From positions 1-64,000 of the IMG/VR virus record IMGVR_UViG_3300027833_000035: a stretch of 64,000 bases of DNA. One strand, given 5' to 3'. Source of the DNA: a virus. Shown one piece after another: positions 31,847 through 49,114 of this stretch. A program made the translations under genes and the position numbers. The notes beneath the pieces are model-generated. The model was not told the DNA's origin and did not search any database. It saw only the letters and a program-made list of their open reading frames with translations. Numbering within the stretch: the first letter of the stretch is position 1; every line of letters begins with the position of its first letter.

Positions 31847-32546
31847 ACTTGATTTTTATACATCACACAAAACGCTTATAGAATTACAACCAATTCAATC
31901 TAGAACTAAACCACCATCATGGTGGAAGTCTATTAAGAATTCGTATAGCCAATTTAGGTCTAGGGCTGGTACTAAAGTTCCAACTCCAACGGTTAAAACT
32001 TGTCCTGGGATTGTTGATTATATTCGCAAACCTATTGTTCTTAAACTATGGTCGGATGGTATTTTTAAAGTAAAACCAAACGGTGATGTTGAATGTATTG
32101 AACCCTTACAAGGATCTGGCATACTTGATGGATCTCAACATGAACGTAGACAATTTGGTGATACATTATATCCAAACTGTACTGTATTTAAACTACATGG
32201 TCCATGGTCAGTTAAATCAAGTGAACGTAAAGAGTTTATGATTACTGAATGTCATTACACTGAAGATTTGCGTAAGCATGGTATTTTAATCTCACCTGGG
32301 ATTACAAACTTTTATGACCAACATACTTTAAACTGTTTTTTAGTATTTCCAATTAAAGACGAAGAATATACTGTAACGCTTAAATATGGTACACCTATTA
32401 TGTCAATATATCCAATGCACGAAATGGAACTTGATATTAAAATGCATGAGGTAGCTACACGTCAGGAATGGCAAGAAATACAAAACGTATTCCCATCAAC
32501 CTTTATCGGTCGTTATCACTCCCGGAAACACACACGCGGTAAGTGA
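31827..32546 (+). CDS. conserved phage hypothetical protein
   Basis: PSWWK...TVKTCPGIVDY...LWSD...FKL..PW...GTPI motifs. Confidence 0.7.
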   Translation: MIKKKLKLDFYTSHKTLIELQPIQSRTKPPSWWKSIKNSYSQFRSRAGTKVPTPTVKTCPGIVDYIRKPIVLKLWSDGIFKVKPNGDVECIEPLQGSGILDGSQHERRQFGDTLYPNCTVFKLHGPWSVKSSERKEFMITECHYTEDLRKHGILISPGITNFYDQHTLNCFLVFPIKDEEYTVTLKYGTPIMSIYPMHEMELDIKMHEVATRQEWQEIQNVFPSTFIGRYHSRKHTRGK

Positions 32547-33524
32547 ATGGTGTTCCATATAACTTAGTACACCTTTATCAATACATGTCATTAAATTTTT
32601 ACAATTGGCACAGTTATCAGATTTACTTGAATAAGCCAACTGTGACATGAACTTATTGTCTTTTACCTGAGTCCACGACTCAATATCATTTTCATCCTTG
32701 ACTACAAAATTATCTGTACCAATTAAAGCTATATCATATACGAATGGTGTCCAAAAGAAACGTTCGTTACAATAAGTATAATTTAATTCTAAAGAACCAC
32801 CTTGCGCTTGGTCAATAAATGTTTTAGGCATAAGATCGTCAGCAAAGTCATAGTTCTTCCATTTTTCAATAAGATGTTTTTGAACTTTAGATTTTGGCGC
32901 TCGGAAAAACGATGGATTTAAAGTAAGAATAGAATCAAACTGTTCTTCAACGAGTTTTGACATTTCGAGTACCTTATGGTTCTCAACATCATCATTACCC
33001 ATATTATATACCATATAATAATTTAAATCATCTGTCAACCCGTTTAATATATCTAATTTATATTTAAGTACATTCCAATTAACAGGTGGCTGCAACGCTA
33101 TATTACAATCATACATAAATCCATCAGCTTTTGGAATACTATTTAATAACTCAATAACATTATAATCAATCTTTTCCAATGTTGTAACGAATTGAATAGT
33201 AGTTACTTTACTTAAACACTCTCGGAATGTTTCATCTTTTAATAACTCTGTAATATTATTATTACCAAATAAATCAGTTGGACCAATATTAATGGTTGAC
33301 ACGCGGTACCCATTGGTATTAAATAAATCAATGGCATTATTTAATCTATCAAACGATCCCATATTTGAACCGAGTTTATTAACAAAACAACCTTTGCATT
33401 TAAACTCGCAGCCAGATAATACCTCACAATTAAACTGTACTTTGATTTCATGTCCTTCATTAAAGGATAAATCAAAATCCTTATCGGCTTGAGCAGCACG
33501 TTTATTATTAGTAACTATTCCCAT
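32496..33524 (-). CDS. divergent radical SAM protein (rSAM9, GPTD type)
   Basis: EVLSGCEFKCKGCFV, IGPTDLF; CANCKNLMTC...C; start set at MGIVT after GAGG. Confidence 0.8.
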   Translation of the reverse strand: MGIVTNNKRAAQADKDFDLSFNEGHEIKVQFNCEVLSGCEFKCKGCFVNKLGSNMGSFDRLNNAIDLFNTNGYRVSTINIGPTDLFGNNNITELLKDETFRECLSKVTTIQFVTTLEKIDYNVIELLNSIPKADGFMYDCNIALQPPVNWNVLKYKLDILNGLTDDLNYYMVYNMGNDDVENHKVLEMSKLVEEQFDSILTLNPSFFRAPKSKVQKHLIEKWKNYDFADDLMPKTFIDQAQGGSLELNYTYCNERFFWTPFVYDIALIGTDNFVVKDENDIESWTQVKDNKFMSQLAYSSKSDNCANCKNLMTCIDKGVLSYMEHHSLTACVFPGVITTDKG

Positions 33525-34662
33525 GGTAAACCTCATCATCATATAAACCAATTACATCTTTATTTAAAATACATTCTTTTCTTCCATCAAATACGGTATC
33601 CATAATCATTGGAACCATTCTATTCACGCATATATTTAAATACTTACAATCGCCGCATTCTTTGCTTCCACTATTTTCAATCTGTTTAACAACGATTTCG
33701 TCTTTCTTTTTTAGAATATAATCAGTTATATCCGCGTCAGGCAGCATCAACCAACCATTATCAACTTTAAAATCATCTGTATGGATCTGAGCATTCTCAT
33801 ATATGAATGGAGACAAATACATATCACCGTGGTATATACTGACTACCGAATAATGAAATGCTTTATGTGATACATCACCTTGTAAGAAATGGAATTTGTT
33901 TTTAAACTTATGTGGATCTGCAGCCAACCGAGTTAGCATATCGTTCCATTCAAATAGTTTATTTCCATGTTTTGCACTATGATTAAAAGAACGTACTACT
34001 GATGGCAATACTTCAATAACAGTTTCATACCTACTCCTAACAAACTCAATGGCAGGGAATAGTATATCCTCTACACCTTGTACGATATTAGTAGCCATAC
34101 TTATTTCAAAGTTTAAAGAACTATTCTTAAACGTTTCAACTCTTTCGTCGAGTGCATCTAAGTATACTTGATCGTTCATTAATCTATTTAAATCCAAAGC
34201 GATTTGTACATCCCATGCTTCAACGACCTTACCCAGCGGTGAGTTTTCAATAGATTTTATCTTACCCTCAATATCCTTTTCAGATAATGATCCAAGTATA
34301 GAACAGTTATGTTGGATATTTCTATTATCCTCAGGCATCATTAATATAGCATCAGCAAGCCTTTGATTATTAATAATCTCTTCTAAATTTTGAGCACCAT
34401 AAAAGTCAGTAGGTCCGATTACAATATCGTCCAATACAACATCAGTTCTATCTTTTAATTCATACGCCAAGGAATGAAACGTTGCGATTGAGTTTGGGTT
34501 CCAATTACCTTTACGTTTAACAAAACAACCCGGACACATATATGAACAGCCTTCAAGTATTTCAAGGTTGACTTGTATTTTATATTCTTTCATATTGTCG
34601 ATTGAAGTAAATTCCTCACCACGTCCACCGTCTACAATATTTTTCCAATCATTATTTAACAT
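33508..34662 (-). CDS. divergent radical SAM protein (rSAM8, GPTD type)
   Basis: EILEGCSYMCPGCFV, IGPTDFY; CGDCKYLNIC...C. Confidence 0.8.
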   Translation of the reverse strand: MLNNDWKNIVDGGRGEEFTSIDNMKEYKIQVNLEILEGCSYMCPGCFVKRKGNWNPNSIATFHSLAYELKDRTDVVLDDIVIGPTDFYGAQNLEEIINNQRLADAILMMPEDNRNIQHNCSILGSLSEKDIEGKIKSIENSPLGKVVEAWDVQIALDLNRLMNDQVYLDALDERVETFKNSSLNFEISMATNIVQGVEDILFPAIEFVRSRYETVIEVLPSVVRSFNHSAKHGNKLFEWNDMLTRLAADPHKFKNKFHFLQGDVSHKAFHYSVVSIYHGDMYLSPFIYENAQIHTDDFKVDNGWLMLPDADITDYILKKKDEIVVKQIENSGSKECGDCKYLNICVNRMVPMIMDTVFDGRKECILNKDVIGLYDDEVYHGNSY

Positions 34663-35809
34663 ATGATATATCCTTTAAACGTTTTAGTTCTGGGTCGTCG
34701 TCATCAGTAACCAAAAACTTTTTACGATAACCATTCTTATCGTTTTCAACTGAATAGCCATCCCATTCATACATTGTTTGAGCAGGACCATTATAGTTGT
34801 TTATATTATTTAGCATATTCTCTTTAGGAGCAATGCAGCGATCTACTCCGAGGTAATCCCTTAACATTATTATTTTTCTATTATAACAACTAAAGAACAA
34901 CGGACAATCCTCACACTCAGTTCCTTTTGCTCTTTCAATTTGATGTTCAACCATTGGAACAACGTCATTAAAAGATTTTACTTTAAACATATCATCGTAT
35001 ATAGCCATGTTCTCATACATGAATGGACTTAAATACCATTCACCACGTTTATAGTTTAACACAGTGTAATTAATACCTGCATGAGAATGGTCTACCATAA
35101 TATTGTTTAGCTTTGACTCTTGGTGCCATGTGCTAAAGTATTCATTAAACTCATCGAGTGTCTTTAAGATTATGTTTGCTTTATGAGAACGAGATACTGA
35201 CGGAATAAAATCCAATATAGTATCAAAACGTTTTACTGCTTGATCGTGTAATGCTTCATAATCTAATCCATAATCTTTAATATTAACAACAAACGTATAA
35301 GTAACCTCATGCATAATATGTTTATCTATATAAGCTAACATATCTGATATATGTTTCGTGTATTCATCAGTAAAGAATTTATGTGGATTTGTAGCGATAC
35401 CAATTTCTATTTCAGTATCGAGGTTAATGTTATCCATAAGAAAATTACAGAACTTTTTAATATCACCATCAATAAGAGTTGACACAAAAGCTAGGATAGG
35501 AGAGTTTTCATTAATAATATCTACGAGTTCTGGCATTACTTCATAGAAATTTTCTGATGCCAAAAAGTCTGTTGGACCGATTAATATTTCATCAACAAGT
35601 ATTCCTTGGTCAGTAATCGAACGTATAAACTCTTTTGCCATAAATATTTGGCTTTTATCGCTAGCGTTCCCCCGTCTATGTACAAAGCACCCAGGGCACT
35701 TGTGGTGACAACCGTCTAGTATATCCATTTGAATTTTGACGGCACTGACGGGCTTAGTTTGGGTCTCTGTGGTCATCTCATAATAGAGATTATTTTTAAT
35801 CAGAGGCAT
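34652..35809 (-). CDS. divergent radical SAM protein (rSAM7, GPTD type)
   Basis: DILDGCHHKCPGCFV, IGPTDFL; CEDCPLFFSC...C. Confidence 0.8.
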   Translation of the reverse strand: MPLIKNNLYYEMTTETQTKPVSAVKIQMDILDGCHHKCPGCFVHRRGNASDKSQIFMAKEFIRSITDQGILVDEILIGPTDFLASENFYEVMPELVDIINENSPILAFVSTLIDGDIKKFCNFLMDNINLDTEIEIGIATNPHKFFTDEYTKHISDMLAYIDKHIMHEVTYTFVVNIKDYGLDYEALHDQAVKRFDTILDFIPSVSRSHKANIILKTLDEFNEYFSTWHQESKLNNIMVDHSHAGINYTVLNYKRGEWYLSPFMYENMAIYDDMFKVKSFNDVVPMVEHQIERAKGTECEDCPLFFSCYNRKIIMLRDYLGVDRCIAPKENMLNNINNYNGPAQTMYEWDGYSVENDKNGYRKKFLVTDDDDPELKRLKDISYVK

Positions 35810-36818
35810 ACATATATTCCTTCAATGCGACGCAGTTATCTAATCCTCGCGACTCCATATATAAATGTATATTACGTTCAGCACAGCTCATCATATATTT
35901 GCAGCCATTACAATCATCAACCTGTTGAGCATATTCAATATTATCATATAAAGTATTTGCATCCATCGTTGTTTCAAAATTTGGAGTTCTTTGAATAATA
36001 ACATCATATAAGAATGGATTTAAATATAGTTTATTATTATAAAAGCTATAGTTTTGGCAGCCATATCCATTAAACTTTGCATCAAAGAATGTATAAAGAT
36101 TAAGCCATTTTTTATCAATGTTTTGCTCAACCATTTCGCGTCTAAAGTTTGCTAGGTGCTGTTCCACCTTACCGCGTGCATTCCTATCTGTTAGAAACGA
36201 CGGCGTAATTATAACTGGTGCATTATAATCATCAAATATTCGTTGACATAAATCATTATAGCCGATACGTTTAAATACATCTTTATGGTAATTAACTCTA
36301 AATTGAACTGAACCTAATTCAAACATTTTGAGTTTACGGTTCCAATCGTCTAGTTCTCCATCAAGGTACTTATCTATATCTAAAACGATTTTAAAATCAA
36401 TATCAGGTACTCTGTGAATGCCTTCGTATAAACTCCAAATCTTATCGAGCTTATCCTTTATTTCAGCATATGGTTGAAGTAACGTTGATGTAAATCCAAC
36501 TGCCGATATTTCATAAAGCTTTTTCATATATGGATGGTTCATAATCTCGTAGAAGTTCTCTGCGTCAAAAATGTCAGTAGGACCAACCGTTATTTCGTCA
36601 GGATAATAAGAACCATTAATTAAAAGATTATAAAGCGTTTCTAAATTATCAGCCTTAGTAAGGTTCTTACGTGGAATAAAACAACCTGGGCACGACTGAG
36701 CGCAGCCATGTAATATGTCTAAGTTTATTTCAGTACGTAAAAAGTCTGTATTAATAGGGCTTTTATTTTCATCATACGTATAGTAACCTGCGTATGTTTT
36801 ATTCAGTTTCACTGTCAT
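35796..36818 (-). CDS. divergent radical SAM protein (rSAM6, GPTD type)
   Basis: DILHGCAQSCPGCFI, VGPTDIF; CNGCKYMMSC...C; start set at MTVKL. Confidence 0.8.
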   Translation of the reverse strand: MTVKLNKTYAGYYTYDENKSPINTDFLRTEINLDILHGCAQSCPGCFIPRKNLTKADNLETLYNLLINGSYYPDEITVGPTDIFDAENFYEIMNHPYMKKLYEISAVGFTSTLLQPYAEIKDKLDKIWSLYEGIHRVPDIDFKIVLDIDKYLDGELDDWNRKLKMFELGSVQFRVNYHKDVFKRIGYNDLCQRIFDDYNAPVIITPSFLTDRNARGKVEQHLANFRREMVEQNIDKKWLNLYTFFDAKFNGYGCQNYSFYNNKLYLNPFLYDVIIQRTPNFETTMDANTLYDNIEYAQQVDDCNGCKYMMSCAERNIHLYMESRGLDNCVALKEYMYASD

Positions 36819-37635
36819 TAGTATTGGCCTCGGCTTCCGATTGAATATCAGCTTTAATGTCAGCCTCGATTTCCTCTTCAGTTTTTGGTTTTGGAATATC
36901 AACACTAATAATAAATCCAGGAGGCATCATTGATAAAATGTTATTTGTAATATTAGCTTGTGTCAATACATAAAACAAATCTTTACCAAAGTATGCTGGC
37001 TTATCGTTATACATTTGTTTATTATATTGCATTTTAAATCCAAGCATAGAACAAACTAATAGGAAACCATCCCAACCGTCAGTAAGGAGACGCGCAACGT
37101 TTGGACCACACACTGTTGGTTTATCAACTACTGTAATTTGGTCAACTGCGTCTTTTACTTCAATTTCAATTGCTTTGTTTTCATCTGATAAATTTTCGTG
37201 GAATTTACAGATTACGAATGGAATAAGTTCAGCCATGTTATTACAAACTTCATCAATCAAATCAATATGTTTATCAACAAAATCGTGTAACTGATCTTTA
37301 CTAAATATGTCAAGTAATTGCTGTTCTAAACCATTAAACTCATATCTATATCTAGCTTTAATAGCCATCACAACAAACCGTGATAGGAAAGGGCTATCAA
37401 TAATAAAGTCTGATTTAATATATTCCAACAACAAGTCTTCATCGACTTGAGCAAAAGTTGTTTTAAAGTTAGTGTTTGCTAAATAAATTAGAATATGTTT
37501 AGCTGACAGCTTTTCTTTAGATGCCAAATAATCTACCCATAAAACAAAATCTTCATCTTCTTCTTTTACCTTATAGATCTCAACTAAATTCTGAGGTGCT
37601 AATGGTAAAGTATATATATTTTTTTCTTCACTCAT
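36799..37635 (-). CDS. hypothetical protein in radical SAM operon
   Basis: 278-aa acidic ORF with no recognised motif. Confidence 0.75.
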   Translation of the reverse strand: MSEEKNIYTLPLAPQNLVEIYKVKEEDEDFVLWVDYLASKEKLSAKHILIYLANTNFKTTFAQVDEDLLLEYIKSDFIIDSPFLSRFVVMAIKARYRYEFNGLEQQLLDIFSKDQLHDFVDKHIDLIDEVCNNMAELIPFVICKFHENLSDENKAIEIEVKDAVDQITVVDKPTVCGPNVARLLTDGWDGFLLVCSMLGFKMQYNKQMYNDKPAYFGKDLFYVLTQANITNNILSMMPPGFIISVDIPKPKTEEEIEADIKADIQSEAEANTNDSETE

Positions 37636-37650
37636 AATAAAATCACTTTC

Positions 37651-38754
37651 TTATATCAATGGGTATTTATGAATTAAATATGGTATTCTGTTTTGGCGTT
37701 TTGAAAAGAACTGAACATCTGTATTGATTAACGCTAAGTCTTCTCTAATATTATCTGTGTTAAAGTTTCTTTCTAAAACCTTTTTAACGATAGGGAACAC
37801 ATTATTGATTTCAGTATATAGATCCATGTATTCCCAACCATCCGCTGTAGTATCAGCTTTGTTTTGGTGAACCGCAATAAAATCAGCATCGTCTTTAACT
37901 TTATTCCATAACTCTTCTAATAAGTAAAACGCAAGTGTGTAGTTAGATTTATTAGCAGCATTTACATATACATCTTTAAAGAATTGTTTTTTGTCTGTAG
38001 CCCAATCATTCGCGTCAGTTGCATTGGCATTCATATAATCAATGACTGACATAATGTATGCTGAATAGTGACGACGTGAAGTAAAGTGTTCCATAACATC
38101 TCTTGCCATAACTGGTGAATGGATAGTAAACTTCTCAACGATTAATTCTGAAATCGGTGTACATGGATAAAAATCATTTAAGAAGAACAATAAGTCATAA
38201 CTAAAGTTTTTACCATTTTGATATGTAATTACCCAAGGTGTTTCGCCTTCAGCATTTAATAAAGTATTCGTGTGGTTTCTAACATCGTTATAAACTGTTG
38301 AGTCACTCATTAATGATAATACTAAATCTTGGTTAATCACTGCTTCCATATAATGGGCAGTCATAGAATTAATTGTTGTTGCATCGGCATCAGGGTAGAA
38401 ACCAGAGGCTGTTAATAATCCAGCGGTATATTTAGCAAATACTTTAATCATATCCTCTTCGTCTGTAAACATAAGGATACGTTTATCACTGTTTTGAATA
38501 TAGTCAGCATTAGCAACGTCTTCCCATTGCTCAAAATCCAATAGTGAAGCAGCATTAGAACGTGCGTTATTTGCCAACAATTCGTATTCAGCAGGCTGAA
38601 GGAATGCATCTTCAATATCAGGATGAACGATTGTAATTCTTCTTGGCTCAGCAGTATGATAAAAAGAATTTAATTCACCAATTACTGTTTCAACGTTTTG
38701 CGTATTTGTAATATACTTTTTATTATTTAAGTAATATAAACTCTGTCCAATCAT
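37651..38754 (-). CDS. hypothetical protein in radical SAM operon
   Basis: 367-aa ORF; start set at MIGQ after AGGAG. Confidence 0.75.
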   Translation of the reverse strand: MIGQSLYYLNNKKYITNTQNVETVIGELNSFYHTAEPRRITIVHPDIEDAFLQPAEYELLANNARSNAASLLDFEQWEDVANADYIQNSDKRILMFTDEEDMIKVFAKYTAGLLTASGFYPDADATTINSMTAHYMEAVINQDLVLSLMSDSTVYNDVRNHTNTLLNAEGETPWVITYQNGKNFSYDLLFFLNDFYPCTPISELIVEKFTIHSPVMARDVMEHFTSRRHYSAYIMSVIDYMNANATDANDWATDKKQFFKDVYVNAANKSNYTLAFYLLEELWNKVKDDADFIAVHQNKADTTADGWEYMDLYTEINNVFPIVKKVLERNFNTDNIREDLALINTDVQFFSKRQNRIPYLIHKYPLI

Positions 38755-39926
38755 AATTTTGCTCCTAATTTTTCTATTGCGTCGTCGTTCCAAGTGAAAT
38801 CGTATGGATTATATTCAGCAAGAACATCTTTGTTCAATACACAGCCATTAACATTTAATGATTCTTGGGCTTCAAAGATCAGTCTACTTGCGCAGGCAAC
38901 TGCGAATTTACAGTCAGCACAGTCTTTTACTTTACTCGACTTATTTATACCTTTTGTTACTAATTCATTTTTACGATCTAATATTTCTTCGAATGTTAAA
39001 CCAGTAACATCTAAATTTTTATTACCTAAGAAAAACGCTTGTTCATGTAGCATTACATTTAGGTGTGTGGTTGGACCATTTTCTCCTGGAACAATTGTAA
39101 GTCCAACAAAGTTAATTGAGTTACAATAAAGATTAGCCATTGACATAACAGTTTCTTGTGCGTTATCTTTATCAATAACTCTACCAAGGAAATCGTTCCA
39201 TCCAAACAAATTCTTTCTTTGAACCAATTGTGAGTTTGCCCTAGAAAAAGCAGGGTTCATTTCTACGATTGTTTCATATTCATTTACAGATTTTTGGATA
39301 ATCTTATTGTATGTTTCTTTATCAATCTTTTTGCCAACAACGTTAGAAGCCTGAAGTGTCCACGACCAATCCATTTGTTTTGGCGTATTGTTTTTAAAGA
39401 ACTCTACCTTTTCCATAACGTTATCAAAGTATTCATCATCATTTAACATCTGCTCTACTCTGCCGATTGGCATAATAAATTCGATAATCATTTCGCGGCG
39501 ATACTTATCTTCATCGTCAAGTACAGCAAAGATTTCTTTTACTTTATCCATAGTTGCTAAATCAAATTTAGCAGGTGCCGCGATACGAGCTCCGGTATGT
39601 TCTCTCATAATCTCTTGGACTACTGAGTTATTTAATACTGACTCTGTATTCTTGGCAGTGAAAAAGTCTGTTGGTCCAATAACGAATTCTCTTAGGTTAA
39701 GGCCAGTTCTTTTTACACCATCGGCAAGTTCTTTTGCTCTATCAATAATTTGTTGGTTCATAGCAGGGTCAATGTTTTTATCAACGAAACAACCTAGGCA
39801 GCCGTGATTACATCCAGCCAAAACTTCCATTTGAATTAAAACATCAAACTTAGTAGCATCCGAAGGTGTTAGACTTTCTGGTCCTGAGTACCTCATTTGC
39901 TTACAATATGATTTTTGCATTGACAT
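38751..39926 (-). CDS. divergent radical SAM protein (rSAM5, GPTD type)
   Basis: EVLAGCNHGCLGCFV, IGPTDFF; CADCKFAVAC...C; start set at MSMQK, 1 nt after precursor stop. Confidence 0.8.
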   Translation of the reverse strand: MSMQKSYCKQMRYSGPESLTPSDATKFDVLIQMEVLAGCNHGCLGCFVDKNIDPAMNQQIIDRAKELADGVKRTGLNLREFVIGPTDFFTAKNTESVLNNSVVQEIMREHTGARIAAPAKFDLATMDKVKEIFAVLDDEDKYRREMIIEFIMPIGRVEQMLNDDEYFDNVMEKVEFFKNNTPKQMDWSWTLQASNVVGKKIDKETYNKIIQKSVNEYETIVEMNPAFSRANSQLVQRKNLFGWNDFLGRVIDKDNAQETVMSMANLYCNSINFVGLTIVPGENGPTTHLNVMLHEQAFFLGNKNLDVTGLTFEEILDRKNELVTKGINKSSKVKDCADCKFAVACASRLIFEAQESLNVNGCVLNKDVLAEYNPYDFTWNDDAIEKLGAKL

Positions 39927-39927
39927 G

Positions 39928-40308
39928 TTATCTTCTTCCTCTCGAACTGTGACAACTACTATGGCAGCTGGCATGACAGTAATAAGCATTGATTGTTCGG
40001 TTACTCATTCTGCCTTCTATTAAGTCGACTGTTCTTCTAGTTAAATCTTCTAATGTATCAACAATATCTTGTGCGTAAATTATCTGACCTGAATTAATGC
40101 CACCATCTACATAGTTATTATATACATAATAGTTTGCATTCACAAATTCAAATCTATGATAATGCCATTGGCCTGTGGTATAACTTGTAACACCTGTACC
40201 ATTAACATATGCGTTAACATAAATTCCAACATTTCTATCAAACGTTCTTAATTGTTGTCCACCATACGTCATTACATACGAATTAACGTCACCTCTATCC
40301 ATAGTCAT
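39928..40308 (-). CDS. CHSS-repeat protein B, putative radical SAM substrate
   Basis: 126 aa ending NAYYCHASCHSSCHSSRGRR; paralogue of 40308-40688. Confidence 0.8.
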   Translation of the reverse strand: MTMDRGDVNSYVMTYGGQQLRTFDRNVGIYVNAYVNGTGVTSYTTGQWHYHRFEFVNANYYVYNNYVDGGINSGQIIYAQDIVDTLEDLTRRTVDLIEGRMSNRTINAYYCHASCHSSCHSSRGRR

Positions 40309-40688
40309 TAGCGGCGACCTCGCGAGCTATGACACGATGAGTGACAACTTGAATGGCAGTAATATGCGTTAATAGTTCTATTTGATAATCTTCCTTCAAC
40401 CAAATCAACAGTCCTCCGTACGACGTTACGAATTGAATCAATAACATTACCTGAACGAATAATTCCGCCGGTGTATATACCACTAGACATATACCCATTA
40501 TAATAAGAATATGAAGCGTTTACAAACTCGAACCGTGTATAATGCCATTGGCCTGTGGTATAACTGTATCGTCCACCGTTTGCATATACATAAGCATTAA
40601 TATAAAACCCAACGGTCTTATCAAAGGTTCGTAATTGTCGACCACATTGAGTCTGTAAACTACTATTTAACTGTGCATAACTTGGCAT
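40308..40688 (-). CDS. CHSS-repeat protein A, putative radical SAM substrate
   Basis: 126 aa ending NAYYCHSSCHSSCHSSRGRR; starts 1 nt after tail fibre stop. Confidence 0.8.
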   Translation of the reverse strand: MPSYAQLNSSLQTQCGRQLRTFDKTVGFYINAYVYANGGRYSYTTGQWHYTRFEFVNASYSYYNGYMSSGIYTGGIIRSGNVIDSIRNVVRRTVDLVEGRLSNRTINAYYCHSSCHSSCHSSRGRR

Positions 40689-40689
40689 A

Positions 40690-43600
40690 CTATACTTTAA
40701 CCTCTACTTCACCATTTTCACTATCACTTATCGCGATACCAATTATTTCATAGCTATTTATACCCGGAGTACCATAGTCAACTCCCTTAGCTTTACCATC
40801 ACCAGCAGGGATTACCCATTGGCCTTTCTTAACATCTTCACTTACTAAACATGGGATCCGACCTTTAAGAGCAATGAACGGATTCATTAATGCTTTTGTA
40901 GAAGTAGATCCAGGCTCAATTCCCATGTCGTTCATTTGAACAGCAGGGTTTGTTGATATGACACCAGCAAGAGGCATGCCCGGTTCCCATTTAGTAACTT
41001 CTGAGTCACCTTCAATGTTAATACCCATAACAGTAGCATTTTCATATACAGCATCTGCAGAATATCTCTCTGCAAGGTCAGCCCATCTTGCTGACGTAGC
41101 TGTACCAACATATAAACCACCATTATCAATATACGATCTATCAGAACCATTTTGTCTAAACTGACAAATACGGTTTGAGTTACCACCAGAAGTAATATAG
41201 AAACGGTTTGAGTGGTATTCAATTTTACCAACATCGTTTCCTGGGTTACCTGTCCAAGATTCGTTACCAGATTCTTCAAATCTAATACATGGTGAATAAC
41301 CATCTTGGTGTCGTGTTCTTAACTGCCATTGACCCGCAGCATTCAAATCGCCTGACCATGTTCTGTCACCATACATCCAACGACACATTGTACCGTTATA
41401 TGTTGCTCTAAGTTGTAGAGACATAGACGAAGAGTTATTGTTACCAGTGATAGCATAATACTGACCTTGGTAAGAATAAGCGTGTACACCGGTTTGCTGG
41501 TTGTAAATACCCTCACGTTGACCGTCGTTACGGAACCAATTACGAGCATATATTTCATTGGCACGAACATAATCATTGAAGTTAGAACCTGATGATGGAT
41601 TACAATAATAACCAGTATTATCTCTGTCGTAGAAGATTGGCGCACGGAATGAGGATGATGCATAAGAGTTGCCATCACACATTGCTTGGAAGTACCAACC
41701 TGAAATACTATCAGTAGCATTACCGTGCATCCCAACATAGAAACCTGTTGACCCTGTAGTGTTATTATTATTTGAGTCAAGGTTAAAGAATATGTCGTGG
41801 TATGAGTTAAATCGTAAATCGTCTGATACACCTCCACCACTGTCTCTGGAAGATATAGAGTGATAAGTACTGTCGTTACCATAGAATGTAATAAAGTCAC
41901 CACGATCTCTTGCGTTTAACTGATCCCATTCAATCGTACTCATTTGCGAAGTAGATGCTGGGTTTGTATAACGATTTGTATCGTTTGAGTCGTAGAAGAT
42001 TGGAGCTCTTAATGAACTACCAGCTTGTAATGAGTTATTTACATAAACGTCGTTAGCACCAAGTGGATCAGAACCGTTATTGATTGACATGACCTGAGTA
42101 TTCATTGTATAGTCATCGTAGAAACGCATACCATTATAACTAGCATTTGCACCCATCTTAATACCAGTGTGGAAAGCAATTCTTAGATCCGGGTATGGGT
42201 AAGTCCAACCACCACCTTCACGATAGATAGCGTAAGCAGTTGATTCATTACTTCCAAAGTACAAACCAAATTGGTCATTTTGTGAAACATCATCTTTGTG
42301 TACAAATCTATTTGCTCTAATGTCGCCAGCAAAATTGTTATCACCGGCTGGATTTAAAAAGTATGCAGAGTTGTTACGATCGTAATAAGTATTGGCATAT
42401 ATATCACCATATACTTCAGTTGTACCACTTCGAGTTCTTAGTGCCCAGCTACCAGATTGATTAAGGAAACCAATATCATTTGAGTTGTTTGCATATACAT
42501 AGCCTCGAATAGTACTTCCATTATCATCTCTAAATCGTATACCATTAGCAGAGCCACCGCCTGCAACGTTCCAATAGTCATCGTTGTCTGAATAGAAATG
42601 CTGACCTGTTGCAGTGTTATATAAACCACGACCATTTGTATCGTTACGGAACCAACCATCGTTATAAACTTCTGAACGAATATCAAGTGTATGCATTACT
42701 GATGTTGAAGCAAAGTCACCGTAATAACCTGTACTGTCACGGTCATAATATCGTCCAGAGTAAGTTCCACCTGTTACGAATATGTTACCATCACCACGAA
42801 CAAGAAGATTTGTTGTACCTGATAAGCCGCCATCTCTAAACGCAATGTCTTCACCGCCTGATGTAGCAATAATTAAGTGAGCATCATTAGTATCAGTAGC
42901 TTGGATATAACCACGAACATTGCCAGCATTTGTAATAAACTGAGCTTCACCACCGTCAGCAAACTGAATAACATCTACTTTTGATGTACTTGATGGATCG
43001 ACGTAGAAAGATGTATCGTCTGAGTCAACTAATCTACTTGCATAGAAGTATGAACTTGTACCGCCGCCTGGGTTTGCGTTATAGATAGCAATATCAGAAT
43101 AAGAAGAATAGGCTGTACCTGAGTTCCATGACTGTTGCCATAGACGCATACCACGACCAGACTTTTTAAACATCAATAAGTTATCTGAACCGCCAGAAGA
43201 GTCTGTGTAAGATCTTAAGTGTAAGTAATCGGCATATGGTGCAGTGTTATTATTGTTCCAAGATGTGAAACCAAACGTTAATCGACCTGCAGTATCTTCG
43301 TTAGGTTCAATAATACGGTTATCTTTGCGTAATAATGATCCTGCATAACCATTAACATTACCTTGGATTACGTTATCAACTTGTAATGTTAATAGTCTCG
43401 AAGTACCATTACCGTCAATTTTGTATGCAGTATTGTCACTGTCATACCAAATTGGTGAACGTAACTGATTAACACCTAGGAAGAAACCATCTTTAGTAGA
43501 CGCTTGTTCTTCACCATTATAATAAAGTTCAACATCGCCATTTTGACGGAAGATTTGTGCCCATTCGTCGTTAGTATCATTAAAGATACCAGCAACGCCA

Positions 43601-46600
43601 GCTCCACTTGACATGAATACCCAGTCATCGTTAATAGCATAACCTGCATAACCACCTTTATTACCAGTTACACTGATTGAGCCATATGTACCAGTAGTTG
43701 CATCTAATTGATATGTTGCTCCACCAAACTGAACAGCGTTTGCACGAAGAATATTTGTAAGAGATGTTGAGGCTGGATCTAAGTAATAAGCGTTATCGTC
43801 TGAGTCATAGAACCTGCTTGCATAAGAACCGTTAAGCGCTGTATGCGTACCCGATACAACAACATTACGAGACATTGCCCAGTCACCGTTAGCATCAGTC
43901 CAGTTACTATCTGTAACAAATCTTAGTCTGTCTGGGTTAGTACCCTCTGCCATTCTAAGCATTTGAGTTCCACCAGCAACCAACTGCATATCGTCAGCAC
44001 CAATAAATCTGATATATGTATCAGTATCGCCATTATGTCTAATATATTCGTTAGCACGTATTTCGTTAAATACAGATGTTGAAGCCGGATCAGCATAGTA
44101 AGCTGAGTTGTTAGAGTCATAGAACCGTTGAGCATATGAATAACGTCCAGCCCAAACATCACCGTCAGACTCGACACGTAAACGATATACACCATTACCA
44201 GCACCAGTTGTGAATTGTAAATTACCGCCTACGTTAGTTGCGAAGTCATTTGGTGACTCATAAATTTGCCATAGGTTTCCGCCGTTCCATGCTAGACCTT
44301 CAGATGGTCCTGGATCGTTGAATGTTAATTTGTTTACGTTATTAATATTACCGTTTGTCCAATCCCAGTTACCTCCGACTTTAGATGGACCTTTTGGTTC
44401 AATGTAATAGTTAGTGTCGTTAAGGTCTCTAAACCTACCAGCATCAATAATATTTGCTGAGATGTTATCTGCAGAAATATCACCAGTAACAGTAAGATCG
44501 TTACCGATTGTGGCATCGTTAACAATAGTTAATCCTGCAGCTTTTAAGCTTGATTGAGCATCAGTTCTTTTTAGAATTGGTGGACCAAACTCACGTGTTG
44601 CACCATTTGGAGCATAATTCATTAATGAGATTAATCTAACAAAACGAACGCCTTCACCATCTGAACCATTATATGGTGTGTGAGTTGTTGGTACAACGTG
44701 TTCACCTGAATATTGAGTCCAGCCTGTGGCGGTATGATTGATAGCAGATGCCGCAAAGTATGAAATACCATCATTAGTAGCAATTGGATTTTTGTTTTTA
44801 TCGTATCGTCTAACACCTAAGTAGAATAAACCGCCAGTACCACTAATGCGTCGAACAGCTTGTTCTGCGTAAATTGTTTCGCCAGGTTCTACAGGAATAA
44901 AATCAGAGTCAAAGCTTCTATAACCATTTGATCTTAATGCGTAACTTGATGCGAATGGACCGTCACCGTTTAAAACATATTCACCGGTACTAGTTGTTGC
45001 ATTATTTTCAACACCCTGCATTGGTTGAATAACACGTTTATCCCAGTAGTCTGAAGCATCAAACATTTTGAGATCAGCAAGGCCGGCGCCATATGATTTA
45101 AGTAATCCAAGGTTCTCATTACCACCGTTAAGAGCAAGAGATCCAAATATACCAGCGCCATAAGCTTGTATATCACCATTTTCTGAGAACCAAAAACGTT
45201 CACCAATATTATTAAACGAAATACCCATCGCAGAACGAGAGTTTCTTGTTTTATGGAATATAGATGGGAAGTTAGCATCAGCAGCTGTATTTTGTAAAAC
45301 AATTAAACGTTGTTGAGTAGACTTAACCTCTAATGGATAAGTTGTATTATTAAAGATTGCGCTATCACCAGCTTTAACTGATTTAAGTCTGGATTGACCA
45401 GCAAGATCGGCATAGAATGCAGAGTTATCTAAATCATAGAATATTGGAGAACGCATACTGTTTGGAGCAGAACCATAACCATTTTCAGCACCAATTTGAT
45501 GAATGTTATTAGAATATAATCTTGTGAAGTTATTTCTGTTAGCAACCAATGACCATTCGTTATCTGTTTCGTTATACAGACCCATCTCTGTAGCACCACT
45601 GGATATAAAGCCCCAGTCATTACTAATCATATAACCTGCATAGCCATCTCTTTCGCCTTCAACCATGATAGTCCCTTTAGGACCTGATGGTGAGTCGATA
45701 GTTAGGGAACTGCCGTCCATTTGGATTTGATTTGTTCGAACAACATTTAAAATAGATGTTGAAGCAGGATCTAAATAATAAGCATTATTGCCTGAGTCAT
45801 AATAACGTGGAGCATAAACATCAAGGTTAAAATCAGCAGAGTTATCATCAATGTTTAATCTCTCTGTATTATTGATAAACAATTTATAAATGCCAGCTGC
45901 AGAGAAACCAAAGTATGTATCTGCATCACCGTTATGTCTAATGTAATCGTCAATGTCAATTCTATTCATTACTGATGTACCAGCAAAGTCACCATAGTAT
46001 GCGTTATTATTATAATCGTAATAAGTAGGGAAGTATGCCATGTCATTGGCATCAGCAGCTGATATGCCGCCATTGAAATTCACTCTCTTATTGAATAAGA
46101 ATAAAGCTCTATCAGTATCAAATTGTGCTGAACCAGCAACCTTAGATCCAATATCTAAATAACCAGTTGGTGTTGTGAACCTATGAGCATTACTTGTATT
46201 TGGTTCAAACTTAAAAGTTCCACCAGCATCAGAGAATATTGGGGATCGCATATCTGTAGCAGCTTCTGCATATGTTGTATATACATCAAGCTGCGCGGTT
46301 CCGCCGGCAGTAAATATAATTTGGTCAGCGCCAAATCCAATTTTAGTATTAGTATCACCGTCGTGTATAATTTCACCGACGAGACTTATGTTATTCATTC
46401 GCGATGTACTAGCAAAGTCACCGTAATATAAAACATCATTTGCATCTAGGTACTGAGCGAATGAAGCATTACCTGTTGACGTAAGTGTTTTATTATTTCT
46501 AACTCTAAGATTGTTGGCATCGTTCATGTAGAAACCGCCGCCTTGACCAAAGCCAAGTTCATCCATTCTTAGGAATGTAGCAGTTCCATTACCAACAACA

Positions 46601-49068
46601 TATGCATCATCAGTACCATTAAGTTGTAATGATCCATCTATGTGAAGTTTACTATCTGTTTTTGTACCACTATTTAATAACGGAGTATTATCGTGTTGAG
46701 TATATGCAACTGAGTCATTACCAATTGTAATATCCCCAGTACTTAACATTGCTAATCTTGTTGATGCACCACTATCGTAGAAGTAAACTCCTTGGTCTGC
46801 ATCAGATACAAAGTACGCATTCTTTGAACTATCACCTCTAATAGAGAACGCCGCTGCGCCATCTGCTAAGAATTCTGACCAATATCCATTTTTACCTGAG
46901 AATGGATTACCACCCATATCAATTCTGTTAAGTGATAATAGTGATAGTCCACCAGTATTACCAGCAATTGAAATTGTAGGGTTAGTAGTCGCACCTAATC
47001 CAGCATATGGCGCGATCATAATTCCGCCAGTACCTGAGTTATTATCTACAAGGTTAAAGTCTGTACCTGCGCCAACATTAATACGTCCACCAACTCTAAG
47101 CGAGTCAGCAGCACCAGTTTGACCAAGATCCAAGAAGTTTGTTGTTCCTGATGTATCATAATATACTGGTGCTTTCATATTGTCAACGGCTGTTACGCCA
47201 GTATCTCTTACGAATAATCTATCACTACCACCAGTTCTAACTTTAAACTCGTTTGCGGAAGAGAATGTAATTAATGTATCAGCATCACCTTGGTGAATAA
47301 TGTCACCTTGTAAACTGATGTTGTTCATTACTGATGTACCAGCAAAGTCGCCGTAATATGAGTTATTATCAGAGTCAACAAACTGTGGTGCAAGAACATT
47401 ATATGTAAATGTCGCGTTTGTAGCATTAAGAGTTAATCGTGCAACCCCATTTGTTGTAAATGTCTGTACATCTGTACCAAAAGAAATTTTATTATTAGTA
47501 TCACCATTATGGAATAAGTCGTCATTAATACCAAGGCTATTAAATACTGATGAACCAGCTGGATCGGCATAAAAGTTATTATCGCTTGAGTCAAGGAACC
47601 TTGGTGCGATTAAATCAACTGATGATGTAACTGCTGTATCAGTGATTGATAATCTAACTGAGCCACCCGTTGCTAAATCAATTTGATTAGTACCAAATGA
47701 TAACTTAGTATCGGTATCACCGTTATGGAAAAGATCGCTATCAATTCCAATTGTATTCATTACTGATGTACCAGCAAAGTCACCAAGATACGCATTATTG
47801 CCACTATCTAAATAACGAGGAGCTTTTACATCAACTAACGCTTCAACTGCAGTGTTATTAATTAATAGCCTTTGCCCTGCACCAGTATATACTTCGAATT
47901 GATTAGCAGCTGGGAAATTAATATACGTATCAGCATCGCCATCGTGTGATATAGTTCCAACAAGTTCAATATTATTTAACCTTGATGTATCGGACGGCCA
48001 AGACAAATATGTATTATCATCAGAGTCTAAAAATTTATCAGCAATAAGATTACGGCCAACAGTCCAATCACCATTTAAATCTGAATATGTTTGATAAGCA
48101 AAGACTCCATCAAGGAAACCAATTTTACCGTTATCAGAAGAAAGAACTCTATTGTTACCCGCACCGCGCATAGTAAGTAGGGCCGAACCAGTTCCGTTAC
48201 CGATAGCAACCGTTCCTTCAAACTCTAAATTACCCGTAGCAATGTCATTAACATCTGAGCGAATAAACTGTGAAGCTTCTAATCCGTCAACGGTATCAGC
48301 ATCAAAGTTATTACCAGAACCTTCGTCGTCTGTTGTAATAATACGACCAATGTCTGTACCATTTGATATTAGTTTAAACCAATCGTCTGTCTCGTCCCAT
48401 TGTAAAGATGATGTTGCTAAACCTCCACGAAGAACTTCCCAACCAGCGTTTTCTGTTGGTGTACCAGTAGTAAAGTTTGAATTGAGTGTAATAATATTAT
48501 CAGCAATTAAAACCGTTTCTGATTGAACCTCGACGCGTGTACCTTGTACTGTAAGGTTACCAGTGATAATATAATCACCGTCCATCGTATCATTTTGATC
48601 CGACCTTACAAAACTTCCACTATCAATTCCATCAAGTAAATCGGCATCTAAACCAGATCCTGTGCCGTCGTTTCCAGCGTACCAAATATCTTCGCCATTA
48701 ACTGTTGGAGCACGTTTAAAATCAATACCAGTTGACGTAAATGCTAAATCAATAGAACCACTATATGTAACAGCAATTCCATCAGTACCATTATTAAATG
48801 TAATACCGTTATTGCCATTGTCTATTGAATAATCATTTGGTGTTGGATTTGAAACATTTAAACTGTTTGCGTTACCAATAAAGCTGGTAATTACTGAACC
48901 ATTGCCGCCATCGTTTGTTATTGTAACTGGTATACCTGAAGAATTACTAAAATCAGCTGTTCCTGATACTTGTAATTTATTTGTGCCGTCGTCGGATGTT
49001 GTGCCGATTAGAACGTTATTCTCAGATTGAAGTCCGTTCTTTACTATGAATTTCTTATCATTTGCCAT
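40690..49068 (-). CDS. giant repetitive tail fibre with C-terminal intramolecular chaperone/autocleavage-like domain
   Basis: DKKFIVKNGL start, LDADLLDG, about 19 (F/Y)YDSxN..YYxDxAxTS repeats, C-terminal ATSARWADLAERY...GVISTNPA...IALKGRIP. Confidence 0.85.
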   Translation of the reverse strand: MANDKKFIVKNGLQSENNVLIGTTSDDGTNKLQVSGTADFSNSSGIPVTITNDGGNGSVITSFIGNANSLNVSNPTPNDYSIDNGNNGITFNNGTDGIAVTYSGSIDLAFTSTGIDFKRAPTVNGEDIWYAGNDGTGSGLDADLLDGIDSGSFVRSDQNDTMDGDYIITGNLTVQGTRVEVQSETVLIADNIITLNSNFTTGTPTENAGWEVLRGGLATSSLQWDETDDWFKLISNGTDIGRIITTDDEGSGNNFDADTVDGLEASQFIRSDVNDIATGNLEFEGTVAIGNGTGSALLTMRGAGNNRVLSSDNGKIGFLDGVFAYQTYSDLNGDWTVGRNLIADKFLDSDDNTYLSWPSDTSRLNNIELVGTISHDGDADTYINFPAANQFEVYTGAGQRLLINNTAVEALVDVKAPRYLDSGNNAYLGDFAGTSVMNTIGIDSDLFHNGDTDTKLSFGTNQIDLATGGSVRLSITDTAVTSSVDLIAPRFLDSSDNNFYADPAGSSVFNSLGINDDLFHNGDTNNKISFGTDVQTFTTNGVARLTLNATNATFTYNVLAPQFVDSDNNSYYGDFAGTSVMNNISLQGDIIHQGDADTLITFSSANEFKVRTGGSDRLFVRDTGVTAVDNMKAPVYYDTSGTTNFLDLGQTGAADSLRVGGRINVGAGTDFNLVDNNSGTGGIMIAPYAGLGATTNPTISIAGNTGGLSLLSLNRIDMGGNPFSGKNGYWSEFLADGAAAFSIRGDSSKNAYFVSDADQGVYFYDSGASTRLAMLSTGDITIGNDSVAYTQHDNTPLLNSGTKTDSKLHIDGSLQLNGTDDAYVVGNGTATFLRMDELGFGQGGGFYMNDANNLRVRNNKTLTSTGNASFAQYLDANDVLYYGDFASTSRMNNISLVGEIIHDGDTNTKIGFGADQIIFTAGGTAQLDVYTTYAEAATDMRSPIFSDAGGTFKFEPNTSNAHRFTTPTGYLDIGSKVAGSAQFDTDRALFLFNKRVNFNGGISAADANDMAYFPTYYDYNNNAYYGDFAGTSVMNRIDIDDYIRHNGDADTYFGFSAAGIYKLFINNTERLNIDDNSADFNLDVYAPRYYDSGNNAYYLDPASTSILNVVRTNQIQMDGSSLTIDSPSGPKGTIMVEGERDGYAGYMISNDWGFISSGATEMGLYNETDNEWSLVANRNNFTRLYSNNIHQIGAENGYGSAPNSMRSPIFYDLDNSAFYADLAGQSRLKSVKAGDSAIFNNTTYPLEVKSTQQRLIVLQNTAADANFPSIFHKTRNSRSAMGISFNNIGERFWFSENGDIQAYGAGIFGSLALNGGNENLGLLKSYGAGLADLKMFDASDYWDKRVIQPMQGVENNATTSTGEYVLNGDGPFASSYALRSNGYRSFDSDFIPVEPGETIYAEQAVRRISGTGGLFYLGVRRYDKNKNPIATNDGISYFAASAINHTATGWTQYSGEHVVPTTHTPYNGSDGEGVRFVRLISLMNYAPNGATREFGPPILKRTDAQSSLKAAGLTIVNDATIGNDLTVTGDISADNISANIIDAGRFRDLNDTNYYIEPKGPSKVGGNWDWTNGNINNVNKLTFNDPGPSEGLAWNGGNLWQIYESPNDFATNVGGNLQFTTGAGNGVYRLRVESDGDVWAGRYSYAQRFYDSNNSAYYADPASTSVFNEIRANEYIRHNGDTDTYIRFIGADDMQLVAGGTQMLRMAEGTNPDRLRFVTDSNWTDANGDWAMSRNVVVSGTHTALNGSYASRFYDSDDNAYYLDPASTSLTNILRANAVQFGGATYQLDATTGTYGSISVTGNKGGYAGYAINDDWVFMSSGAGVAGIFNDTNDEWAQIFRQNGDVELYYNGEEQASTKDGFFLGVNQLRSPIWYDSDNTAYKIDGNGTSRLLTLQVDNVIQGNVNGYAGSLLRKDNRIIEPNEDTAGRLTFGFTSWNNNNTAPYADYLHLRSYTDSSGGSDNLLMFKKSGRGMRLWQQSWNSGTAYSSYSDIAIYNANPGGGTSSYFYASRLVDSDDTSFYVDPSSTSKVDVIQFADGGEAQFITNAGNVRGYIQATDTNDAHLIIATSGGEDIAFRDGGLSGTTNLLVRGDGNIFVTGGTYSGRYYDRDSTGYYGDFASTSVMHTLDIRSEVYNDGWFRNDTNGRGLYNTATGQHFYSDNDDYWNVAGGGSANGIRFRDDNGSTIRGYVYANNSNDIGFLNQSGSWALRTRSGTTEVYGDIYANTYYDRNNSAYFLNPAGDNNFAGDIRANRFVHKDDVSQNDQFGLYFGSNESTAYAIYREGGGWTYPYPDLRIAFHTGIKMGANASYNGMRFYDDYTMNTQVMSINNGSDPLGANDVYVNNSLQAGSSLRAPIFYDSNDTNRYTNPASTSQMSTIEWDQLNARDRGDFITFYGNDSTYHSISSRDSGGGVSDDLRFNSYHDIFFNLDSNNNNTTGSTGFYVGMHGNATDSISGWYFQAMCDGNSYASSSFRAPIFYDRDNTGYYCNPSSGSNFNDYVRANEIYARNWFRNDGQREGIYNQQTGVHAYSYQGQYYAITGNNNSSSMSLQLRATYNGTMCRWMYGDRTWSGDLNAAGQWQLRTRHQDGYSPCIRFEESGNESWTGNPGNDVGKIEYHSNRFYITSGGNSNRICQFRQNGSDRSYIDNGGLYVGTATSARWADLAERYSADAVYENATVMGINIEGDSEVTKWEPGMPLAGVISTNPAVQMNDMGIEPGSTSTKALMNPFIALKGRIPCLVSEDVKKGQWVIPAGDGKAKGVDYGTPGINSYEIIGIAISDSENGEVEVKV

Positions 49069-49106
49069 TCGGTTCACTCTCCCCAGTTAGGCTTTATTCT
49101 TAAATC

Positions 49107-49114
49107 TATTTATA
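49107..49114 (-). promoter_or_regulatory. T4-type late promoter for tail fibre/precursor/rSAM operon
   Basis: TATTTATA on + strand, in context AATCTATTTATAA shared with 26951 and 55506. Confidence 0.75.

Follow-up and report, generated by a model that had tools for sequence, protein, structure and literature searches.

We examined a 64,000-nucleotide (nt) stretch of viral DNA (positions 1 to 64,000 of IMG/VR record IMGVR_UViG_3300027833_000035, which is 72,895 bases long; hereafter, the window), and focused on two tandem genes, paralogues A and B. Their 126-amino-acid (aa) products both end in a 16-residue tail of the form C-H-x-S-C-H-x-x-C-H-x-x-R-G-R-R-COOH. On balance, we lean toward the interpretation that these are fibre- or baseplate-associated virion proteins, in which the tail is cross-linked or oxidized by the phage's own radical S-adenosylmethionine (radical-SAM) enzymes. 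Modification of the tail by radical-SAM enzymes is the best reading because the tail motif was conserved in homologues, was linked to radical-SAM genes, and occurred in a homologue that was found in virions. The source phage is a T4-like myophage: the window encodes a major head protein, scaffold, protease, portal, tail tube, sheath and terminase, as well as several giant fibre-like proteins. The nearest cultured capsid proteins were those of Sinorhizobium phiM12-type phages (67%) and Methylophilales Melnitz phages (66%). The genes under study were arranged as follows:

40690–49077, minus strand: 2795-aa tail-fibre-like open reading frame (ORF), phrog_18345 tail fiber (E 1.8e-12), immediately 5′ of B
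40308–40688, minus strand: paralogue B (upstream copy), 126 aa, ending CHSSCHSSCHSSRGRR; it begins 1 nt past the stop of the fibre gene
40311–40358, minus strand: the 16 tail codons of B
39928–40308, minus strand: paralogue A (downstream copy), 126 aa, ending CHASCHSSCHSSRGRR; its ATG shares base 40308 with the stop of B
39931–39978, minus strand: the 16 tail codons of A

The junctions fibre/B, B/A and A/rsA (rsA being the radical-SAM-like gene that follows A) measured 1 nt, −1 nt and 1 nt, respectively. The TAA stop of B and the ATG of A overlapped by one base to give TAATG. We placed the rsA start at 39926, 1 nt past the A stop; the mechanical ORF extends to 39989. In a BLASTP comparison, A and B were identical at 79/123 positions (64%, E 1e-44). 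These results bore out an initial annotation of this DNA, which had described two tandem 381-bp genes that overlap by TAATG and are more than half identical. The two conserved blocks that it had singled out (SYTTGQWHYxRFEFVNA and RRTVDLxEGRxSNRTINAYYCHxSCHSSCHSSRGRR) were both present in the BLASTP alignment. The two proteins share the C-terminal end CH[S/A]SCHSSCHSSRGRR, and the motif intervals 39928–39984 and 40308–40364 each comprise a gene's final 18 codons and its stop codon.

Over the last 54 nt, A and B differed at 20 positions, which comprised 12 synonymous codons and a single non-synonymous codon (at the A/S position). Because the differences were mostly synonymous, we concluded that the identity of the tails has been kept by selection at the protein level, rather than by recent copying or gene conversion. 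A tree of 88 tail proteins (61 distinct; two-copy loci only, midpoint root) placed upstream and downstream copies in separate clades in most of the marine group, indicating that both copies have been long retained, and in order; in the subgroup L036–L045 both copies clustered together. This long retention suggests that the two copies may have non-redundant roles. Marine metatranscriptome contigs from four runs in four studies covered A and B, and one 2,655-nt RNA-library contig spanned 38700–40720 with 75 letters differing from the window. Within the tail codons of A (39946–39994) every third base differed between the RNA-library contigs and the window; that is, the changes there were synonymous only. 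These contigs are at most a weak hint of transcription in close relatives, given that carry-over of DNA is possible, and are no proof of it.

Conservation of the motif in homologues had been set as a check by the initial annotation, and our searches confirmed it. A word-indexed search at E ≤ 0.01 yielded 159 clusters, none of them with a protein name and almost all of marine metagenomic origin; the strict CH..CH..CH..RGRR end was present in 116 of the 120 relatives listed from these clusters, and the remaining four were three proteins with one His changed to N or Q and one fragment. An exhaustive HMMER search of 1.84 billion representatives returned 36 proteins at E ≤ 0.001, 28 of which carried the strict tail; the other eight were fragments, frameshifted forms or unrelated low-complexity proteins. 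Distant members ranged from 112 to 276 aa, and their N-terminal parts barely aligned. In alignments of 24 and of 89 sequences, the columns C111, H112, S114, C115, H116, C119, H120, R123, G124, R125 and R126 were invariant, at a mean column identity of 42–43%. The 133 tails found in 88 loci comprised 42 amino-acid variants and 92 nucleotide variants. The tail had been read initially as three His-Xaa-Ser units: the Cys and His of all three units and the Ser of the first were indeed invariant, but the Ser of units 2 and 3 varied and can be N or A. The constant feature is three Cys-His dyads spaced 4 residues apart, followed by RGRR and the C-terminus.

Both window proteins matched phrog_35144 (E 4.7e-5 and 2.8e-5), with the match confined to the C-terminal ~60 residues; this family, together with phrog_1802 and phrog_31457 for the enzymes, represents relatives in PHROG without a described function. 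Neither a megablast of 32400–41000 nor a tblastn of B and of a 187-aa relative gave a match in the phage collection. The BLAST low-complexity filter masks the tail, such that the self-match of the protein from phage Atu_ph07 (see below) ends at residue 280. There was no usable match in the ESM Atlas. In the open-access literature, we found no paper that describes the tail or ties phage radical-SAM genes to a structural protein.

Downstream of the paralogues, the window encodes two sets of radical-SAM enzymes with companion genes. We refer to the nine enzymes as rsA–rsE and a–d:

38751–39926, minus strand: rsA, radical-SAM-like, phrog_31457; CNHGCLGC at residue 39 and C-terminal CX2CX5C...C
37651–38793, minus strand: unk1, 380 aa, no known family
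36799–37635, minus strand: unk2, 278 aa, no known family or fold
35796–36905, minus strand: rsB, phrog_31457 paralogue; CX3CX2C and C-terminal Cys cluster
34652–35809, minus strand: rsC, phrog_31457 paralogue; CX3CX2C and C-terminal Cys cluster
33508–34662, minus strand: rsD, phrog_31457 paralogue; CX3CX2C and C-terminal Cys cluster
32496–33551, minus strand: rsE, phrog_31457 paralogue; CX3CX2C and C-terminal Cys cluster
31827–32546, plus strand: phrog_7084 protein
30722–31846, plus strand: radical-SAM/SPASM enzyme d, phrog_1802
30382–30780, plus strand: small conserved ORF
29487–30401, plus strand: radical-SAM/SPASM enzyme c, phrog_1802
28469–29509, plus strand: radical-SAM/SPASM enzyme b, phrog_1802
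27450–28478, plus strand: radical-SAM/SPASM enzyme a, phrog_1802
26975–27499, plus strand: cupin-domain protein, 5′ of enzyme a
26366–26929, minus strand: 2-oxoglutarate (2OG)-Fe(II) oxygenase (PF13759, E 2.7e-13), adjoining the cupin gene

We compared 88 loci that were fetched via the tail motif (80 from IMG/VR and 8 from genome contigs). Linkage to radical-SAM genes, which the initial annotation had likewise set as a check, was found in 87/88 loci, where a tail ORF had at least one radical-SAM homologue within 10 kb. The sole exception, L090, was a spurious match without the RGRR end. Enzymes of the phrog_1802 type were present in 78/88 loci, and in nine other real loci the available DNA ends within the cluster. 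In 66/88 loci the edge of a radical-SAM gene lay no more than 700 nt from the tail stop codon, and fibre homologues stood upstream of the tail genes in 57/88. Two layouts were seen. Loci L001–L048 had the order of the window, running from the fibre through one or more tail genes to the rs-type cluster, whereas L049–L080 carried a single tail protein of 177–318 aa right behind a homologue of enzyme a, with d, b and c further on. Enzymes a–d are the set that is universal to the system. The five phrog_31457 paralogues (rsA–rsE) belonged mainly to the marine group, although single members also turned up here and there in Bdellovibrio-like loci and in phage RSL2.

Iterated profile searches showed that unk2 accompanied the tail gene in 86 loci from all groups, and that in the distant loci it followed the tail gene directly. 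Also widespread were the oxygenase, with homologues in distant, cultured and Bdellovibrio-like loci, the cupin and the small ORF. Conservation of unk1 was restricted to the close marine group (47/48 loci, plus 2 bin contigs), as was the presence of the phrog_7084 protein. Two of the genome contigs (L083, L084), filed under a Rhodobacteraceae bin, were phage contigs with the window-like layout of fibre, tail pair and radical-SAM genes; their binning is probably an artefact, or at most a hint of the host.

The system was also present in bacteria. Five contigs from Bdellovibrio-like metagenome-assembled genomes encoded tail proteins of 188–215 aa and the same enzyme set. One of these contigs is 299 kb long, and genes for a prepilin peptidase and for ABC transporters lie no more than 7 kb from its cluster, from which we concluded that it is cellular DNA. 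In two contigs (L086, 4595–8337; L089, 17582–20046), short proteins with the Peptidase_S74 chaperone domain (269–373 aa) adjoined the tail/radical-SAM cluster, and in one of them the N-terminus had a methylation motif of the pilin type. Bdellovibrio adheres to its prey by S74-ended trimeric fibres, described in a paper that makes no mention of radical SAM (PMC10769870). Thus, the tail/radical-SAM system accompanies fibre-type adhesins in both phages and predators.

The motif CX3CX2C and a C-terminal Cys cluster were found in all of the enzymes (9/9); the C-terminal motif was CX2CX5CX3C...C in a and CX2CX5C...C in the others. Only b reached the gathering score of the Pfam Radical_SAM model (39.7 bits vs 29.5), with the others below it, and the SPASM domain model gave E 1.2e-5 and 7.3e-5 (25.7 and 23.1 bits, just under the cut-off of 27). 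The radical-SAM motif began at residues 11–19 in a, b and c, and at residue 44 in d. Because it stands at the very start of a, b and c, these three enzymes have no N-terminal recognition domain; in this they are like the anaerobic sulfatase-maturing enzyme anSME, and the arrangement is better matched to a protein substrate than to a leader peptide. In NCBIfam, a and b matched best to DarE (1.9e-14), DynA (1.9e-12) and anSME (1.9e-10), followed by CbpB and HxsB (1.6e-8) and HxsC (2.6e-5), and also PapB and AmcB. The named families that a and b matched are all peptide or protein maturases. Every maturase score fell under its family cut-off, indicating that no enzyme is a member of any of these families. 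A sequence search of a and b against solved structures gave no match at E ≤ 0.01, and PADLOC returned only weak viperin-type radical-SAM matches for the enzymes and none for the tail proteins.

Cultured phages provided evidence from virions. A tblastn search with enzyme a identified 15 phage records, from Ralstonia/Burkholderia Chiangmaivirus phages, Agrobacterium phage Atu_ph07, Sinorhizobium phage Phosso and a Pseudomonas phage. Ralstonia phage RSL2 has the order cupin (ORF066), radical-SAM enzyme (ORF067) and then ORF068, a 186-aa protein that ends CHSSCHTSCHGSRGRR; likewise, Atu_ph07 has gp172 (cupin), gp171 (radical SAM) and then gp170, a 296-aa protein that ends CHSSCHASCHNSRSRR. Homologous cupin genes precede the radical-SAM gene in the window, in RSL2 and in Atu_ph07 alike. 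Homologues of ORF068 were present in 11 records and those of gp170 in three. The available text of the FLC6 paper lists cupin, Fe-S oxidoreductase, radical-SAM and 2OG genes without comment (PMC8066314).

Gp170, annotated as hypothetical and with a listed mass of 31.89 kDa, has been recovered from purified Atu_ph07 particles, where 8 unique peptides gave a coverage of 35.16% (PMC6102473, Table S5, of which we used the part covering gp57–gp707). The mass that we computed for translated gp170 was 31.89 kDa, equal to the value in the table, which shows that the gp numbering agrees. Gp170 was found in gel bands 1–9 and was most abundant in band 1, the top band; in the part of the table used, the other proteins that were dominant in band 1 were mostly of 75–139 kDa (PMC6102473). 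Such abundance in the top band is unusual for a protein of 31.9 kDa. There was no row in that part of the table for gp171, gp168 or gp165 (radical SAM), or for gp169 or gp172. That is, a homologue of A and B is made and is present in virions, which answers the remaining check of the initial annotation, that the proteins be expressed.

The AlphaFold 2 (AF2) model of B, built from 89 sequences, had a mean predicted local distance difference test score (pLDDT) of 88.4. Residues 1–105 folded with pLDDT 81–97 into a helix (4–19), a hairpin (23–34/43–54), a long conserved helix (79–100) and then a short hydrophobic stretch, and a helix within the tail (113–120) was predicted with less confidence (block means 71 and 59). 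The model suggests an N-terminal alpha/beta domain without a recognizable fold, and a tail whose 16 residues are exposed. Searches with the tail-protein model found nothing at E ≤ 0.001 with Foldseek (best PDB 0.17, best BFVD 0.10) and a best Z of 5.4 in a wide VIA-align search (root-mean-square deviation [rmsd] 4.2, 82 aligned), a value within noise; the best E of the tail-protein profile against solved structures was 0.44. A homotrimer prediction with three copies scored 0.45 vs 0.48 for the control. The model of unk2 had a pLDDT of 91.5, and fold searches with it (best Foldseek E 0.29, best VIA Z 4.7) revealed no recognizable relative. Its weak echoes, all below noise, included several radical-SAM enzymes, among them anSMEcpe 4k36 (Z 4.0, 135 aligned, rmsd 4.0) and ChlB (Z 3.6).

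We propose that A and B would be made together with the giant fibre gene and would enter the virus particle, probably on or near the fibre or baseplate. Before or during assembly, the tail would serve as the substrate of dedicated radical-SAM/SPASM enzymes, four of them universal and five more present in the marine lineage, accompanied by the cupin, the 2OG-Fe(II) oxygenase and unk2. The most likely chemistry would be hydrogen abstraction leading to an intramolecular Cys thioether, a His-to-carbon cross-link or Cys oxidation. The product would be a rigid, chemically unusual C-terminal knot, which may hold a metal or anchor the protein. This proposal draws on the invariance of the tail under protein-level selection, on the same pairing of tail and radical-SAM genes in very different genomes (RSL2, Atu_ph07 and the Bdellovibrio-like contigs), on enzymes of maturase type with a compact build in a, b and c, on the recovery of gp170 from virions, on the old duplication that has been kept in order, and on the precedent of HxsA (see below).

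Several observations weigh against it. The maturase matches of the enzymes lay far under the curated cut-offs (e.g., 53 bits vs 650, and 34 vs 370). The universal enzyme set is located 8–13 kb from the tail genes on the opposite strand, and only the lineage-specific set is adjacent. The proposed chemistry is drawn wholly from the gene neighbourhood, and Cys and His are classical metal ligands, such that the tail could work unmodified. Presence in the virion is that of one distant homologue, gp170, and not of a protein from the window phage, and the peptide count and coverage of gp170 speak for the protein in the particle rather than for its tail. Lastly, the loading buffer published for Atu_ph07 lists no reductant (PMC6102473), and therefore the migration of gp170 in the top band may reflect disulfides, an oligomer stable in sodium dodecyl sulfate or a covalent link.

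The possibility that the tail works unmodified can be stated as a metal site, in line with the metal-binding fibre tip that the initial annotation had offered as an alternative: the three Cys-His dyads would bind Zn, Fe or another metal, perhaps between the chains of an oligomer, and stabilize a fibre or baseplate joint, with the neighbouring radical-SAM enzymes acting instead on other targets, such as the fibres or a small molecule. This would accord with invariant Cys and His beside Ser that vary in units 2 and 3, and with the AF2 helix 113–120, which aligns the Cys at i/i+4 on one face and the His on the next (pLDDT 59–71). A fibre gene stands just before the tail gene, virions contain a homologue, and His-built metal sites are established in the fibre proteins of T4. 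We nonetheless consider an unmodified metal site unlikely, as it leaves unexplained both the invariant RGRR end and the tie to radical-SAM genes in 87/88 loci, often adjacent, across unrelated phages and Bdellovibrio-like bacteria. The two ideas are not exclusive, given that a modified tail could also bind metal.

Alternatively, the N-terminal domain could be a long leader from which the modified 16-residue tail is cut off as a toxin, signal or redox cofactor. Precursors of the cofactor type pair an invariant C-terminal core with a remainder that varies, and the ends of the precursors of pyrroloquinoline quinone and mycofactocin are invariant; many tailoring proteins are encoded (four to nine radical-SAM enzymes, together with a cupin and 2OG oxygenases), and residues 103–120 gave a weak, sub-threshold match to the CLI_3235 precursor. 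Yet the N-terminal part is a confident fold of at least 105 residues, and of up to about 280 in relatives; no peptidase or exporter was recognized in the window cluster; gp170 was recovered from particles with 35% coverage; and a late structural operon behind a fibre gene better suits a particle protein. A released product therefore seems to us rather improbable. The tail might also hold an Fe-S cluster, with ligation of the Rieske or mitoNEET type, and the protein might act as an electron donor or cluster carrier for the enzymes, not as their substrate. Radical-SAM enzymes need a reductant and a supply of Fe-S, Cys/His ligand sets for 2Fe-2S clusters are known, and the co-occurrence with the enzymes was strict. 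We regard this helper role as highly improbable: each chain has three Cys only, gp170 was in virions without the enzymes, and the highly variable N-terminal domains and the fibre-proximal copy kept in order would be unexpected for a housekeeping-like helper.

The T4 late-promoter consensus, TATAAATA, occurred a few tens of bases 5′ of many structural gene starts, including those of the fibre and of paralogue B:

40755–40762, minus strand: TATAAATA, 67 nt 5′ of the ATG of B, within the 3′ end of the fibre gene
49107–49114, minus strand: TATAAATA, second copy, just 5′ of the fibre start

Minus-strand sites were found at 8591, 9626, 10362, 11271, 15418, 22436, 26357, 26955, 40755, 49107 and 55510. 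The total count of 16 vs 9.96 expected was not above chance (8/100 shuffles reached 16); the suggestive feature is the placement shortly before gene starts.

Other genes of the window are recorded here as separate observations. A collagen-repeat fibre of 1566 aa with an S74 chaperone end (55577–60277, minus strand) contained 10 collagen stretches (E 4e-75), and an LtfC-like fibre-assembly protein was encoded 3′ of it at 55157–55483 (minus strand). Tandem small paralogues at 25580–25915 and 25920–26309 (minus strand), both DUF7936 (E 8.7e-13 and 3.4e-9), adjoined the oxygenase and cupin genes. In the structural region, 22508–23308 (minus strand) encoded a fusion of cytidylyltransferase-like and mannose-6-phosphate isomerase (cupin) domains, which hints at sugar-nucleotide chemistry near the fibre module.

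To our knowledge, radical-SAM enzymes are known to mature small peptides and a few proteins of cells, but no protein of virus particles. The 16-residue tail was near letter-for-letter the same in marine T4-like phages, in jumbo phages of plant-associated bacteria and in predatory bacteria, always together with the same enzyme set and usually beside fibre genes. If the tail is modified, host recognition or the assembly of particles would involve a new chemistry, and an explanation would be at hand for the radical-SAM cassettes that an earlier study noted, without giving one, in host-recognition islands of marine myophages (PMC7029224). Tentatively, and with appreciable doubt, we suggest further that unrelated phages and Bdellovibrio-like predators share a dedicated pathway of four to nine radical-SAM enzymes plus oxygenases that turns the tail of a fibre-associated protein into a new kind of covalently cross-linked, possibly metal-holding, structure, which the particle or predator would need for prey attachment or entry; the tail would then be the first case of radical-SAM post-translational modification of a virus structural protein. 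The question is directly testable in cultured phages, and a virion proteome of Atu_ph07 already exists.

Among known systems, the closest analogue is the HXS antiphage defence system, although membership failed on each feature that we tested. In that system HxsA, an HxS-repeat protein, is the effector; its maturation is by two radical-SAM enzymes, HxsB and HxsC, and it shows a change of +8 Da, and HxsD is a further component (PMC13128918). Like HXS, the phage system has a whole protein with repeated His-x-Ser units that is rich in basic residues, and at least two dedicated radical-SAM enzymes; a, b and c matched the HxsB/HxsC models weakly (E 1.6e-8, 2.6e-5, 0.0029). In contrast to HxsA, whose repeat has period 3, the phage repeat has period 4, comprises three units with an invariant Cys before each His, and is at the extreme C-terminus followed by RGRR. 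Also unlike HXS, which has a periplasmic effector, the phage system has its genes next to fibre genes, in phages and in predatory bacteria, and the homologue gp170 is a particle protein. The HxsA model had no match among the five tail proteins in an NCBIfam scan at E up to 10, that of HxsD had none among the 15 cluster proteins scanned, and the HxsB/HxsC scores lay below the equivalog cut-offs (33.8 bits vs 370; 23.3 and 16.5 vs 267.9).

We also compared A and B with classical precursors of peptides that are made by the ribosome and modified after translation (RiPPs); the initial annotation had inferred a leader-plus-core layout suited to His-Ser cyclophanes or Cys thioethers. Radical-SAM modification survives as our best reading, but the layout fits poorly. 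As in a RiPP cluster, a radical-SAM/SPASM maturase stood beside the precursor (rsA 1 nt after A; 87/88 loci). In contrast, the N-terminal parts of relatives, at about 95 to 280 residues, were unalike, and no PqqD/RiPP recognition element family was among the Pfam/NCBIfam matches of the cluster proteins. A leader peptidase or exporter was not recognized among the 16 + 26 + 15 + 13 proteins scanned, several of which belong to no recognized family, such that a novel peptidase is possible. Because the N-terminal domain is folded and variable, the tail is invariant, no recognition element, peptidase or exporter was seen, and gp170 is in virions, we concluded that the tail protein is not a classical leader-plus-core RiPP precursor.

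More specific likenesses were found to the radical-SAM thioether and cyclophane peptides (sactipeptides, ranthipeptides/SCIFF, triceptides, darobactin/dynobactin, and CcpM with CLI_3235), which share a Cys- or aromatic-rich C-terminus beside radical-SAM/SPASM maturases. The best hidden Markov model neighbours of a and b (DarE, DynA, CbpB, PapB and AmcB) came from this group, and the period-4 Cys spacing of the tail may resemble that of SCIFF cores. Matches to the CLI_3235 precursor (TIGR04065), at residues 103–120, were of 13.1 and 14.7 bits (E 0.08 and 0.03) vs a cut-off of 26. Unlike these peptides, the phage protein consists of a folded, variable domain apart from its invariant core, and its product appears to stay on a virion protein.

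The compact radical-SAM/SPASM build without a leader-recognition domain is that of anSME, which acts on a folded protein, a sulfatase. The TIGR03942 alignments of a and b were near full length (7–327 and 2–338 of 363), at scores (33.6 and 40.3 bits) under the equivalog cut-off of 349.45. The target motif of anSME in sulfatases is Cys/Ser-x-Pro/Ala-x-Arg, and the third tail unit, C-H-x-[S/A/N]-R, has its Arg four residues after the Cys as in sulfatases. The +2 position is S/T/G/A/N, however, and not a conserved Pro/Ala, and the phage protein has three Cys rather than one and lacks a sulfatase domain. Lastly, the fibre proteins of T4 hold metal, with iron at His-x-His sites in gp37 and zinc in gp12. 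Like these sites, the phage tail places a repeat of metal-ligand residues at the end of a protein of the fibre module. It differs in that the repeat is CHxx with period 4 in a separate small protein, whereas T4 uses HxH in a triple beta-helix, and in that the tail is strictly tied to radical-SAM genes.

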